Origin: a virus
DNA: 64,000 nucleotides
Virus record (IMG/VR): IMGVR_UViG_3300032093_000042
Span: 1-64,000 of that record
Direction: 5' to 3' (one strand)
Position 1 is the stretch's first letter. Each line of letters begins with the position of its first letter. The notes under the pieces are model-generated. The model was not told the DNA's origin. It saw nothing but the letters and a program-made list of their open reading frames with translations, and did no database searches. A program made the translations under genes and the position numbers. Shown here in pieces: positions 23,268 through 26,815 of the stretch.

Positions 23268-23313
23268 AATTTTTGTTGCTTTCTAAATTTACATACTATA
23301 TATTAGTAACAAT

Positions 23314-23367
23314 ATGATTTCACTATCACAACCTAGTCAAGCCAGTCAACTTCCATTGGGAAGTTGA
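23314..23367 (+). CDS. leader peptide 2 (17 aa) MISLSQPSQASQLPLGS
   Basis: TTGCTT(23276)-17-TATATT promoter, ATG 9 nt downstream; ends TGA TGA abutting the antiterminator strand. Confidence 0.75.
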   Translation: MISLSQPSQASQLPLGS

Positions 23368-23436
23368 TGACGGAGTTGTTTGCTATAAAGATCCAACCCG
23401 TCACTCTATAAAAAGAATGACGGGTTTTTGATTTTT
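23346..23436 (+). terminator. attenuator 2: pause hairpin, antiterminator and terminator
   Basis: TCAACTTCC/GGAAGTTGA(23346-67); TGACGG-A-GTTG(23368-78) pairs with CAACCCGTCA(23394-403); terminator AACCCGTCA/TGACGGGTT(23418-26) followed by TTTGATTTTT. Confidence 0.8.
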
Positions 23437-23440
23437 GTGG

Positions 23441-23468
23441 TTGACGGATTGAGAATGTGTGGTATATT
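23441..23468 (+). promoter_or_regulatory. early-type promoter for tRNA array 2
   Basis: TTGACG-16-TATATT. Confidence 0.75.
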
Positions 23469-23483
23469 TGAAATATAACGAAC

Positions 23484-23574
23484 GGGGTTGAAACTCTATC
23501 TGATGTCCCCAACGAAAGTTAAAACATTTGATCGGTCACTGGGTGTTATCCTCGTAGAGAACCCAACTGGCGAT
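23484..23574 (+). ncRNA. conserved leader RNA element of tRNA array 2
   Basis: homologous to 15177-15285. Confidence 0.65.
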
Positions 23575-23606
23575 AATTGGAATAAAAGTAATAACGATTT
23601 TTAAAT

Positions 23607-23683
23607 GGGTGGTTAGCTCAGTCTGATAGAGCATTTGCTTTACACGCAAAACGTCACAGGTTTGAATCCTGTACCACCTACCA
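23607..23683 (+). tRNA. tRNA-Val(UAC)
   Basis: loop TTTACAC, CCA. Confidence 0.93.
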
Positions 23684-23690
23684 TTTTAAT

Positions 23691-23775
23691 CGGAGTGTAG
23701 TCCGTAAATAGGAGCGGGCCAGTTTTGGGAACTGGATCGAAAGACCTGTAGGTGCAAGTCCTATCACTCCGACCA
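23691..23775 (+). tRNA. tRNA-Pro(UGG)
   Basis: C1, loop TTTGGGA, enlarged variable loop, CCA. Confidence 0.88.
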
Positions 23776-23782
23776 TTTTAAC

Positions 23783-23860
23783 GGCTATGTAGACCAACTG
23801 GAAGGAGTCGTCTGTCTTAGAAACAGAATAGTGTAGGTTCGAATCCTATCATAGCTACCA
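23783..23860 (+). tRNA. tRNA-Leu(UAG) with short variable loop
   Basis: loop CTTAGAA, 5-nt variable region, A73, CCA. Confidence 0.85.
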
Positions 23861-23868
23861 ATTTATAT

Positions 23869-23946
23869 GGGCTGGCATGTTCTAAGGCTAAGCGAGACTG
23901 ATTTGCAATCAATCTGATGTGAGTTCGATTCTCACCTGGTCCACCA
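23869..23946 (+). tRNA. tRNA-Ala(UGC)
   Basis: G3.U70, loop TTTGCAA. Confidence 0.88.
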
Positions 23947-23954
23947 ATTTATAT

Positions 23955-24038
23955 GGAAGTAGTCCGGTAGGTCGAGGAAACTGTCTTGAAAACAGCTGGG
24001 GCCATAAACCCTCACAGGTTCGATTCCTGTTGCTTCCG
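23955..24038 (+). tRNA. tRNA-Ser(UGA), no encoded CCA
   Basis: loop CTTGAAA, long variable arm, G73. Confidence 0.9.
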
Positions 24039-24039
24039 C

Positions 24040-24111
24040 GCTATGAGAAATTAGATTACCTGTCCGTGGTTCATAGTACACATCAAATTAATTGATGACT
24101 GAACATCTAAT
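24040..24111 (+). ncRNA. HDV-like (theta-type) self-cleaving ribozyme, copy 1
   Basis: P1 GCTATGA/TCATAGT with G1.U, P2 ATTAGAT/ATCTAAT, P3 ACC/GGT, P1.1 GT/AC, P4 CATCAA/TTGATG, J4/2 ACTGA. Confidence 0.8.
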
Positions 24112-24154
24112 AATATCGTCTCTTGAAGAAATCGGAGTTTGTCAAAAGATTTAT

Positions 24155-24244: not shown

Positions 24245-24245
24245 C

Positions 24246-24317
24246 GCTATGAGAAATTAGATTACCTGTCCGTGGTTCATAGTACACATCAAATTAATTG
24301 ATGACTGAACATCTAAT
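24246..24317 (+). ncRNA. HDV-like (theta-type) self-cleaving ribozyme, copy 2
   Basis: identical to 24040-24111. Confidence 0.8.
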
Positions 24318-24368
24318 AATTTTGAATACATATTAAATTATACACATAATATTTCATATTTATAAAAT

Positions 24369-24896
24369 ATGTACGATAATATTTTTGAAGGAACGTTTAA
24401 TAAACATAAACAATTAATGTTAGAATCATTAAATGTTAATGATAATAATTGGGAAGATAAAGTTAACTGGGATGTCATTGCTAACGATGTAGATTTTAAT
24501 AAAACTAAGCCGTTAACATCATTTTTTGGAATAACAGAAACAGATTTAAATACAAAAAAAGATCCTAGAAAAGTTAGTAATTATATAAATCATATAACAG
24601 ATAGATTTGAAAGAGATTTTAATAACTTACCTTTAAAAATAAAACAAACAAGCAAAGAATATTACGGTTTATTTTTACAAGATCCTACACTAGGAAAATT
24701 AAGATTTCATAGTTTAGCTCCTGGCTTAAAAGGATATGTAGCGATTAATGCGGGTAATCACGACGGTAAAACATATAGAAGTGTAGGAAAAGTTATTCAA
24801 GATCGTAAAGATCCAAATATACAACATATCAAATGGTTTTTTATAGGCGGACATGCTCAATATGACGATTTGATCAGTAGACTTCGTAAAAAGTAA
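24369..24896 (+). CDS. protein with C-terminal RelE/ParE-superfamily toxin-like domain
   Basis: LFLQDPTLGKLRFHSL...YVAI...YRSVG...IKWFFIGGHAQYDDLI resembles the RelE/ParE-like W.WIG.H..YD signature. Confidence 0.6.
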   Translation: MYDNIFEGTFNKHKQLMLESLNVNDNNWEDKVNWDVIANDVDFNKTKPLTSFFGITETDLNTKKDPRKVSNYINHITDRFERDFNNLPLKIKQTSKEYYGLFLQDPTLGKLRFHSLAPGLKGYVAINAGNHDGKTYRSVGKVIQDRKDPNIQHIKWFFIGGHAQYDDLISRLRKK

Positions 24897-24902
24897 TATA
24901 AC

Positions 24903-24976
24903 GCGGGTATGATGTAATGGTAGCCTGACGCACTTCCAATGCGTATGTGAGAATTCGATTTTCTCTACCCGCTCCA
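24903..24976 (+). tRNA. tRNA-Gly(UCC)
   Basis: loop CTTCCAA, U73, CCA. Confidence 0.92.
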
Positions 24977-25038
24977 ATTTTTTAAATCAATTAAAATAAA
25001 ATTGAACTTTCATTTGATTCTTACATATTTATGTATGT

Positions 25039-25722
25039 ATGAATAAAAAACGATCAAGTATTATATGGAAAATATCAGATGCTGAATTTACTAAATTGGT
25101 AAAAAATAGCAGAACGATGTCTGAATTGTTGAGACACTTTGGTATGGAAAATAAAGGTGGTAATTATAAAACTTGTAAAAAAAGAATTTTAAAATTAAAT
25201 CTTGATACCAATCATTTTCTAAAAAGAATAGATTCAAGTAATTTTACTAGAAAAGTCACAAAAAATATATTACTGGAACGATTAACTATTAATTCAAATT
25301 GTAATAGATCAAATTTAAAAAAATGGTTGGTTGAACATGATATCATAAAATATGAGTGTTCTAATTGTAAAAATGATGGTAATTGGTGTAATAAAAAATT
25401 AACTCTACAACTAGAACATAAAAATGGAATATCTAATGATAATAGAATTGTAAATTTAACATTTTTATGTCCTAACTGTCATAGTCAAACTAACACATAT
25501 GCTGGAAGATCATTAAATAAACATAAAATTAGACCGTCGGATATTAATCCTAATTGGAGAAGTAATCCTAAATATAATATCAGAAAAGTAACTAGACCAA
25601 CAAAAGAAATATTAGAACAAGAAATAAAGAATAATACTATGGTCGATTTAGGAAAAAAATATAATGTATCTGATAATGCTGTAAGAAAATGGTGTAAGAG
25701 TTATGGTATCGATATAAGTTAA
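25039..25722 (+). CDS. free-standing HNH homing endonuclease
   Basis: CSNC...LQLEHKNGISNDNRIVNLTFLCPNCHSQT, C-terminal HTH. Confidence 0.9.
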   Translation: MNKKRSSIIWKISDAEFTKLVKNSRTMSELLRHFGMENKGGNYKTCKKRILKLNLDTNHFLKRIDSSNFTRKVTKNILLERLTINSNCNRSNLKKWLVEHDIIKYECSNCKNDGNWCNKKLTLQLEHKNGISNDNRIVNLTFLCPNCHSQTNTYAGRSLNKHKIRPSDINPNWRSNPKYNIRKVTRPTKEILEQEIKNNTMVDLGKKYNVSDNAVRKWCKSYGIDIS

Positions 25723-25729
25723 TTTTAAC

Positions 25730-25804
25730 GGGGGATTAGTATAATGGCTATTATGTCTCGCTTTGAACGAGAAGAAGTTGGTTCGACTCCAGCATCCCCT
25801 GCCA
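25730..25804 (+). tRNA. tRNA-Gln(UUG)
   Basis: loop CTTTGAA, G73, CCA. Confidence 0.9.
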
Positions 25805-25811
25805 ATTTCAT

Positions 25812-25850
25812 CGGAATGTAATGTCAATAGTAGACGGCCTGGTTTGGAAC
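25812..25850 (+). pseudogene. 5' half of tRNA-Pro(UGG), truncated after the anticodon loop
   Basis: CGGAATG-TAATGTCAATAGTAGACGG-CCTGG-TTTGGAA-C; no 3' half found. Confidence 0.7.
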
Positions 25851-25897
25851 TTGAATCAAAAATAATCGTTTAGACTATACTAATACTATTTATTAGT

Positions 25898-26437
25898 ATG
25901 GATTATACAGACATCGTAAAACACTCAAAATCAAAAAGCGATTTTGCTAAAAATTTAGGATATAAATTTTATAACGGAAAAACAAGTGCGATTATAAATG
26001 GAATTGTTAAAGAACACAATCTTGATATATCACATTTTAAATCATCTGGTGGAGGTCATAACATAAAATATTCGTTTGTTGAGGAAAAATGCCCGTGTTG
26101 TAACAAAATGTTTACAACACAATCTGGGGGGAATAATAGAAAACAAACTTGTAGTCATGCTTGTTCTAATAAATTTTTTGCATCAAAAAGAGTAACAGAT
26201 GATAACATAAAACACTATACTACATTGTGTTTTAGACATCATAAAAAACAATGTATAATTTGTGGAGAACAAAATATAGTGGCTGTACATCATTTTGATG
26301 AGAACAGAAATAATAATGTTCCAGAAAATTTGATTCCAATGTGTCCGACACATCATCAATATTGGCACAGCAAATACAAACATTTAGTTTACGATAAAGT
26401 AGTAGAATACCGAAACACATTTTTAAAAAAGATTTGA
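25898..26437 (+). CDS. HNH endonuclease with Zn-finger
   Basis: CPCC..TCSHAC; CIICG...VHHFDENRNNNVPENLIPMCPTHH. Confidence 0.9.
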   Translation: MDYTDIVKHSKSKSDFAKNLGYKFYNGKTSAIINGIVKEHNLDISHFKSSGGGHNIKYSFVEEKCPCCNKMFTTQSGGNNRKQTCSHACSNKFFASKRVTDDNIKHYTTLCFRHHKKQCIICGEQNIVAVHHFDENRNNNVPENLIPMCPTHHQYWHSKYKHLVYDKVVEYRNTFLKKI

Positions 26438-26496
26438 CTATTTGTGTATAGAATTATAGCATGCTACCTATTAGCTGGTAGAGGAGACTGAAGTTG

Positions 26497-26537
26497 ACGA
26501 GATAGACATATGGAACAAAGTATAGTGAAATCCTCGT
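26497..26537 (+). ncRNA. junction motif RNA, copy E (minimal; inside a larger fold 26435-26557)
   Basis: ACGAG-ATAGAC-ATAT-GGAAC-AAAGTATA-GTGAAATC-CTCGT. Confidence 0.6.
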
Positions 26538-26612
26538 ATATTCGCAAGTCGTAGTCATCCAATTTGATTTTTAGTTTGACAAAAACTATATGTTAGTATA
26601 AATTCTTTTAAT

Positions 26613-26687
26613 GGGCTGTTGGTGATAGTGGTAGCACGGGAGCTTTGCAAGCTTTAGGGAAGAGTTCGATTCTCTTACGGTCCACCA
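26613..26687 (+). tRNA. tRNA-Ala(UGC)
   Basis: G3.U70, loop TTTGCAA, CCA. Confidence 0.92.
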
Positions 26688-26741
26688 TTTTAAATTAATG
26701 TTTGTTGAATATGTTCAACTATATATTAATGTTCAGAGAGC

Positions 26742-26815
26742 GCGGGTATGATGTAGTGGTAGCCTGCAACCTTGCCAAGGTCGATGTGCCGGTTCGATTC
26801 CGGCTACCCGCTCCA
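26742..26815 (+). tRNA. tRNA-Gly(GCC)
   Basis: loop TTGCCAA, CCA. Confidence 0.93.

Follow-up and report, generated by a model that had tools for sequence, protein, structure and literature searches.

A 17-codon open reading frame (ORF) with its own promoter and terminator, located in front of a viral tRNA gene array, is probably part of a classical ribosome-mediated attenuator, in which RNA segments pairing as 1:2, 2:3 or 3:4 would sense the decoding of the codons that are served by the tRNAs downstream. The element lies in the first 64 kb (64,000 nucleotides; hereafter the window) of the 104.9-kb IMG/VR virus record IMGVR_UViG_3300032093_000042. CheckV estimates the completeness of the record at 36%, which at a length of 104.9 kb makes its source a giant phage; the GC content is 34%. 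The + strand of the window carries two tRNA arrays, array 1 (~15338-19152) and array 2 (23607-26815), and then a tmRNA gene (27639-28021). Leader 2, the subject of this study, precedes array 2, and an unrelated leader of the same design (leader 1) precedes array 1. Comparative evidence supports the attenuator interpretation, and from it we infer that the ORF is translated, that stalling leads to readthrough and which physiological signal is sensed.

Architecture of the leader cassette

The initial annotation of this region had proposed a promoter of the form TTGCTT-17-TATATT (P1), a 17-codon ORF, a hairpin over its end, an antiterminator strand right after the stop codon, an intrinsic terminator and a separate promoter at 23441 (P2), and all of these elements were recovered (Table 1). 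Both hexamers of P1 and the spacing between them are present in the sequence. Translation of 23314-23367 gives the annotated 17 residues followed by TGA, and codons 3-17 encode only Ser, Leu, Gln, Pro, Ala and Gly. The hairpin at 23346-67 appears in the computed fold of the RNA 23305-23440, and the stop codon with the 15 nt behind it pairs with 23393-23406 at -14.1 kcal/mol. The terminator (23395-23436) consists of a stem-loop and T-runs and is situated between the leader ORF and the genes it would control, and P2 occupies 23441-23468.

The mRNA made from P1 would be nearly leaderless, with the ATG ~3 nt past the predicted transcription start. The -10 block of P1, TATATATT, is invariant across 19 aligned relatives, and the same block precedes the ATG of several long ORFs by 2-19 nt, both in the window (30630, 35343 and 55714) and farther along the genome (78760, 91189 and 92109). 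A Shine-Dalgarno-like tetramer precedes only 7 of the 69 long ORFs of the phage. Taken together, the recurrence of TATATATT and the rarity of Shine-Dalgarno motifs suggest a phage promoter class that yields nearly leaderless mRNAs; a leader without a Shine-Dalgarno motif is normal for this phage, because so few of its long ORFs have one and because real genes share the TATATATT start context.

P2 is near-consensus, ranks among the best promoter matches in the region and is kept in almost every relative. A conserved promoter behind the terminator means that the switch can only modulate expression of the array, adding to a basal level, and cannot gate it. P1 and P2 may differ in temporal class.

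The terminator could also be read as a mere insulator of the array against upstream transcription, with the mini-ORF a frame left open by chance in a structured spacer; the window shows no other terminator for the upstream gene, the end of which is at 23267. In two relatives (L025 and L036), however, a separate terminator closes the upstream gene ahead of P1, which makes the cassette an autonomous transcription unit. Insulation also fails to account for an ORF that is in frame in all 10 distinct leader variants, even where little nucleotide identity is left, or for a composition that occurs about once in 100,000 windows of the genome-wide scan described below. Already contradicted by the comparative data, this reading is very improbable.

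Competing RNA structures

The RNA 23305-23440 folds at -47 kcal/mol, compared with -26.3 +/- 3.8 kcal/mol for shuffled versions (z = -5.5; none of 200 shuffles was as good). The fold comprises the hairpin 23346-67 (H1), an outer stem 23328-39/23368-79 and the terminator, which in the window reaches -17.9 kcal/mol if flanking pairs are counted; the terminators of the relatives all lie between -12 and -20 kcal/mol. The window and the relatives L018, L036, L104, L125 and L027 all retain a hairpin that ends at the stop codon or spans it, although at least five unrelated sequences form it. H1 is likely to be a pause or timing hairpin.

Segment 2, the antiterminator strand, can pair with segment 1 inside the leader ORF or with segment 3, which forms the terminator left arm; the antiterminator helix (2:3) and the terminator (3:4) are mutually exclusive. 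The 1:2 core, ACAACC/GGTTGT pairing, is found in all classes and measures 8 bp in L036 and L104. When segment 2 of the window is shuffled, 1.3% of the versions pair with the terminator left arm as well as the -14.1 kcal/mol of the genuine strand. Each of the 13 sequence classes has a 2:3 duplex, with energies from -11.5 to -22.4 kcal/mol, and in 11 of these classes fewer than 2% of shuffled segment 2 versions pair equally well. Since divergent lineages misalign in a MAFFT alignment of all leader classes, these comparisons use per-sequence duplex and constrained folds, not RNAalifold. A cross-class matrix reveals that segment 2 of each class pairs best with its own terminator. That of L104 reaches -22.4 kcal/mol with its own terminator versus -6 to -9 with the others; the terminator of L036 pairs at -11.5 kcal/mol with its own segment 2 and at only -4 to -9 with those of other lineages; and segment 2 is likewise matched to the resident terminator in L125 and L027. 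Covariation of antiterminator and terminator among homologues, which the initial annotation had named as a check, is thus present across three terminator lineages.

This covariation bears on a reading in which the unit from P1 to the terminator is a small gene in its own right, the product of which is a small RNA or a functional peptide of 17 residues, and the array is transcribed only from P2. Its own promoter, an efficient-looking terminator and a second promoter immediately behind would all suit such a gene, as would the dominance of the terminator at equilibrium (discussed below), and trans-acting leader peptides are known, as in the account of peTrpL of Sinorhizobium in PMC7298713. A free-standing gene does not predict, however, that segment 2 should track the terminator left arm across lineages, that replacements in the peptide should be confined to the amino-acid set of the array without any conserved sequence, or that the same architecture should recur, in unrelated sequence, before the other array. 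We regard it as quite unlikely.

The geometry of the proposed attenuator was examined by folding the transcript of nine classes as present before segment 4 is made, with the position of the ribosome constrained. With the ribosome stalled at codon 9, the 2:3 helix forms in nine of nine classes (-16 to -26 kcal/mol); once the ribosome has moved on to the stop codon, segment 3 finds no partner (0 to -4 kcal/mol). The complete RNA without a ribosome folds as 1:2 plus terminator. In these computed folds segment 2 is hidden when the ribosome occupies the stop codon and is freed by a stall upstream. The full leader was also folded at equilibrium, with the ribosome stalled; this often retains the terminator and was judged the wrong model for a kinetic switch.

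Match between leader codons and tRNA genes

The chance background for leader composition was provided by the six-frame translation of the whole 104.9-kb record. Among its 209,728 windows of 15 residues, just two are built exclusively from Val, Pro, Leu, Ala, Ser, Gly and Gln with at least six kinds represented, and leader 2 is one of them. If the diversity requirement is dropped, 577 windows qualify, coming from low-complexity repeats. The earlier estimate that the composition of leader 2 goes beyond chance is upheld on a genome-wide scale. As with the regulatory codons of known attenuators, the leader matches what lies downstream, here the tRNA set of the array, in the window and in its relatives; the matched product is thus a tRNA and not an amino acid.

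Conservation in relatives

Relatives were collected from IMG/VR with the hairpin-loop pattern of a conserved RNA element that follows P2, two positions being left free. At least 118 IMG/VR loci match this pattern, about half of them by chance, and the chance matches were removed by demanding a second motif; at least 48 matches, including the window's own two, hold the remainder of the element. An exact 25-mer from the conserved RNA core has no match in IMG/VR, and the GenBank phages of INPHARED yielded no relative of the region, the matches being tRNA fragments only. Relatives sought via the upstream 306-residue protein were uninformative: the proteins are ~50% identical, and the tRNA arrays stand on the opposite strand behind the protein gene, without a leader.

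The relatives fall into two types, with the RNA element before arrays that resemble either array 1 or array 2. Among the loci listed, 33 are of type 2, and all 239 tRNAs called by ARAGORN within 7 kb downstream of them carry Val, Pro, Leu, Ala, Ser, Gly or Gln. In-frame conservation of the leader ORF had been set beforehand as a check. At least 26 related loci encode 10 distinct type-2 leader peptides, and start, frame and composition are conserved in all of these. The leader is thereby a short promoter-proximal ORF, conserved as such, upstream of the genes it would control. Type-2 leaders comprise 17, 18 or 24 codons and begin 5-10 nt past the invariant TATATATT box; in every one of them the stop codon lies inside or next to the hairpin, and the terminator follows. 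In two loci (L108 and L082) an ORF of ~65 codons stands in place of the leader: it starts at the shared promoter and runs in frame into the final 12 leader codons, and hairpin, segment 2 and terminator are retained.

The seven amino acids of the set account for 75-94% of the residues in each of the 10 variants. The most divergent leaders, those of L125 and L027 (24 codons), contain runs of 20 and 21 own-set residues, with all seven amino acids included. In the variable core columns of the seven 17-codon variants, 23 of 25 distinct residues belong to the set, compared with a neutral expectation that 47% of the nonsynonymous single-nucleotide neighbours of own-set codons remain in it. The Ser that follows Gln-Pro is encoded by AGT in the lineage of the window and by TCA or TCG in L104 and L036. 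Replacements within the set, together with this switch between Ser codon families, argue for selection on amino-acid/tRNA identity and not on nucleotides.

A sister module in front of array 1

Leader 1 (14890-14976) has a 17-codon core made up of 12 amino acids. ARAGORN finds array 1 tRNAs for only eight of these; the remaining four (His, Tyr, Glu and Cys) were found when array 1 was read by hand, with Rfam and relaxed ARAGORN calls (Table 1). With these additions array 1 serves precisely the 12 amino acids that the core contains, and in the genome the core is the only 17-residue window of 209,716 that uses only those 12 amino acids and all of them. The value of leader 1 as an internal control, pointed out in the initial annotation, is thereby strengthened. 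Its claim that the two leaders share no sequence apart from their start context agrees with the comparison of the modules, which have their architecture, P2 and the downstream RNA element in common but not the leader sequence. Downstream of type-1 relatives, 135 of the 145 tRNAs called at the loci listed belong to the other 12 amino acids; there are four exceptions, among them two copies of Val(UAC), with which array 2 begins, and six tRNAs are unassigned.

The sister module is informative about a reading in which the cassette is translated and does switch the terminator, and reports general translation capacity (ribosome availability, global amino-acid starvation or the coupling between RNA polymerase and the lead ribosome), the composition match being secondary. 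The structural logic works with any stall, a leader contains no amino acid more than a few times, and many different codons are sampled, as would be expected of a generic probe. General capacity leaves unexplained, on the other hand, why there are two complementary, non-overlapping leader sets that each match their own array, and why replacements stay within the set across 10 and 12 variants of the two leaders. It is an unlikely account of the cassette.

Proposed mechanism

According to the attenuator interpretation, P1 would start a nearly leaderless mRNA encoding the 17-codon peptide, and four RNA segments would compete for pairing. A ribosome that reaches the stop codon would cover segment 2, so that 3:4 folds and transcription ends at 23429-23436; if no ribosome is loaded, 1:2 would pair and the terminator would likewise form. 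A ribosome that stalls between about codon 3 and codon 14 would cover segment 1 and leave segment 2 free, 2:3 would be established before segment 4 is made, and RNA polymerase would continue into the array. The codons at which it would stall are cognate to the downstream tRNAs, namely those for Ser, Leu, Gln, Pro, Ala and Gly, and in relatives also Val. Because leader codons and array tRNAs correspond in this way, slow decoding of exactly these codons would raise transcription of exactly these tRNA genes. A plentiful tRNA supply would close the contribution of P1, amounting to negative feedback on tRNA supply, and P2 would provide a basal level beyond the control of the switch.

It is important to point out that several observations weigh against this mechanism. 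Equilibrium favours the terminator over the antiterminator, and the full-length fold of the window keeps the terminator at every simulated stall; in several classes the ribosome-free truncated RNA already prefers 2:3 over 1:2. Taken together, these two properties mean that the switch must be kinetic, with capture of segment 3 as in trp. The leader has exceptions to its set: Ile at codon 2, one TTG Leu codon for which no cognate tRNA was found in the window, and the absence of Val. Asn, Lys, Phe, Tyr or Thr occur in the leaders of some relatives; such out-of-set residues are concentrated in codons 2-4 and in the final codon, where a stall is not expected to free segment 2. Each regulatory amino acid is represented only 1-5 times per leader and never in long runs, so that sensitivity to any single tRNA may be low. 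P2 is predicted to transcribe the array whatever the switch does, and the regulatory gain may be small. Three ORFs within array 2 and a promoter-like site (26576-26604) that precedes its last two tRNAs may uncouple distal tRNAs from the switch. Finally, the relatives are mostly close kin, representing some 4-6 independent lineages.

We are inclined, with reservations, towards a broader picture, in which a whole lineage of uncultured giant phages splits a near-complete tRNA set into two arrays, each with its own multi-codon sensor, measures decoding per codon class and tops up the tRNAs that are missing. This would be the first attenuator in which the sensed molecule and the regulated product are the same tRNA. 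A possible trigger is a host anticodon nuclease, or a shut-off, that depletes particular tRNAs. If this picture is true, phage tRNA arrays are under demand-driven regulation, and the leaders are compact natural sensors of decoding speed that read many codons at once. It bears on the question of why large phages carry tRNAs at all, be it for codon supply or to replace tRNAs destroyed by host defences. With two complementary modules in one genome and many natural variants, the hypothesis is directly testable.

Other features of the two arrays

tRNA genes were called with ARAGORN and with Rfam at gathering score, and array 1 was additionally read by hand with relaxed ARAGORN calls. The initial annotation had assigned ten tRNAs to array 2. 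ARAGORN calls nine of these, those for Val, Pro, Leu, Ala, Ser(UGA), Gly, Gln, Ala and Gly on the + strand, and seven of the nine are also found by Rfam. The tenth, Ser(GCU) at ~24152-24245, is confirmed only in part. Called by neither program, it deviates from the canonical form in its D arm and T loop, and its gene does not encode the CCA present in the other array tRNAs; it is nonetheless positionally homologous to the canonical tRNA-Ser(GCU) of relatives and aligns with them. A non-canonical T loop (G-G-C-A-G-Y-A-C instead of T-T-C-G-A-A-T) is shared by His(GUG), Glu(UUC) and Ser(GCU), all three of which ARAGORN misses.

Array 2 also contains an 83-nt direct repeat (24032-24114 and 24238-24320; 99% identical), each copy of which begins within the 3′ acceptor strand of a Ser tRNA gene; a recent duplication could account for it, as could a small mobile insert. 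Among the interrupting ORFs, 25898-26437 has a weak match to an HNH endonuclease and 25039-25722 a zinc-ribbon-like pattern. In array 1, two paralogous tRNA-like genes (15595-15670 and 15676-15757) have good acceptor and T arms and anticodon loops of 10-12 nt, and a third tRNA (16834-16975) contains an insert of ~70 nt. The motif GTGAAATCC recurs in the spacers of both arrays (16280-16300, 17860-17880, 18548-18565 and 26526-26540) and probably belongs to a multi-copy RNA motif listed in an earlier note on this DNA.

The structured RNA between P2 and the first tRNA of array 2 has a counterpart before array 1 (15172-15300), and the two copies are 85% identical over 54 nt (15232-15285). The element is ~100-130 nt long and consists of a 5′ hairpin, the 18-nt loop of which is invariant, together with a three-tier stem that closes a variable hairpin. 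Its homologues in IMG/VR (at least 48) support 18 consensus pairs, compensatory changes being seen in 6, and it has no match in Rfam. Some relatives carry it mid-array without a leader. The element is not part of the switch; our guess is that it could serve as a processing or processive-antitermination signal for the untranslated array.

Table 1. Positions of the leader cassette, of array 2 and of the hand-read tRNA genes of array 1 in the window.
Feature	Position	Strand	Description
Predicted promoter P1	23276..23304	+	-35 TTGCTT 23276-81, 17-nt spacer, -10 TATATT 23299-304; read from sequence
Leader ORF	23314..23367	+	17 codons and TGA (23365-67); translation, in-frame conservation in 10 distinct variants
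Segment 1	23328..23339	+	Leader codons 5/6 to 9; minimum-free-energy folds; pairs with segment 2 if no ribosome covers it
Hairpin H1	23346..23367	+	Over last six codons and stop; folds
Segment 2, antiterminator strand	23366..23379	+	Begins within stop codon; near copy of terminator right arm
Segment 3, terminator left arm	23394..23404	+	Common to antiterminator (2:3) and terminator (3:4)
Intrinsic terminator	23395..23436	+	Stem-loop 23395-23426, then T5-GA-T5
Predicted promoter P2	23441..23468	+	TTGACG 23441-46, 16-nt spacer, extended -10 TGG-TATATT; directly behind terminator
Conserved structured RNA	23480..23590	+	5′ end of array transcript; between P2 and first tRNA of array 2
tRNA array 2	23607..26815	+	Val UAC, Pro UGG, Leu UAG, Ala UGC, Ser UGA, aberrant Ser GCU, Gly UCC, Gln UUG, Ala UGC, Gly GCC
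ORFs interrupting array 2	24369-24896, 25039-25722, 25898-26437	+	Three ORFs among tRNA genes
tRNA-His(GUG)	~15424-15497	+	Array 1, hand reading
tRNA-Glu(CUC)	15507-85	+	Array 1, hand reading
tRNA-Glu(UUC)	~15846-15922	+	Array 1, hand reading
Two tRNA-Tyr(GUA)	16480-16566, 16576-16665	+	Array 1, hand reading
tRNA-Cys(GCA)	19062-19152	+	Array 1, hand reading

Comparison with known systems

Full-text literature searches found no published report of attenuation of tRNA genes or of phage tRNA arrays. The pheV gene of E. coli, considered for an attenuator-like leader, was rejected as a precedent, its 105-nt upstream region being without a leader ORF. The nearest published counterpart found is a 26-gene tRNA array of Anabaena sp. 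PCC 7120, the trn operon, which is silent until translation is impaired and is repressed by TrcR; the repressor binds direct repeats that overlap both the -10 box and the start of transcription (PMC8421152, PMC10272220). The Anabaena operon resembles the phage arrays in that transcription of a tRNA array answers trouble in translation; it differs in that control is exerted by a promoter repressor and on a cellular array, and the 2021 paper does not use the words attenuator, leader or terminator.

T-box riboswitches bind uncharged tRNA directly and need no translation. Like them, the phage element would couple the status of tRNA to readthrough of a terminator via an antiterminator. A T-box identity was rejected, as no Rfam model matches the leader region: a scan of the whole window gave no match of a T-box or other Rfam family to the switch at gathering score, and none was obtained on 23260-23620 at E values up to 10.

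Leader-peptide attenuation has been textbook knowledge for fifty years and, to our knowledge, is known only for amino-acid biosynthesis and one synthetase operon. Many enterobacterial attenuators respond to a single amino acid, such as trpL, hisL, leuL and pheL, and others are multivalent, with Thr and Ile codons in the thr leader and Ile, Leu and Val codons in that of ilvGMEDA. The pheST attenuator of E. coli (pheM leader) controls an aminoacyl-tRNA synthetase and senses Phe only. The mechanism of pheL attenuation has been summarised (PMC3082878). The phage element resembles pheST in applying leader-peptide attenuation to a component of the translation apparatus, and is distinguished from it by its position before tRNA genes.

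With the enterobacterial attenuators at large, the phage cassette shares a promoter-proximal mini-ORF, the 1:2, 2:3 and 3:4 segments, a U-tailed terminator, a stop codon placed to mask segment 2 and codons that match the controlled product. The genes downstream, however, are tRNAs, outside the known target range of biosynthesis enzymes and aminoacyl-tRNA synthetases. Where the enterobacterial leaders contain runs of one to three kinds of codons, the phage leaders sample 6-7 (module 2) or 12 (module 1) amino acids with 1-5 codons each. The element is moreover phage-encoded, its mRNA is nearly leaderless and devoid of a Shine-Dalgarno motif, and a strong second promoter lies behind the terminator. 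Overall, every structural hallmark of leader-peptide attenuators that is open to computation can be recognised in the predicted element, and what appears to be new is the tRNA-gene target, the breadth of the codon set and the adjoining promoter, which is predicted to act independently of the attenuator.

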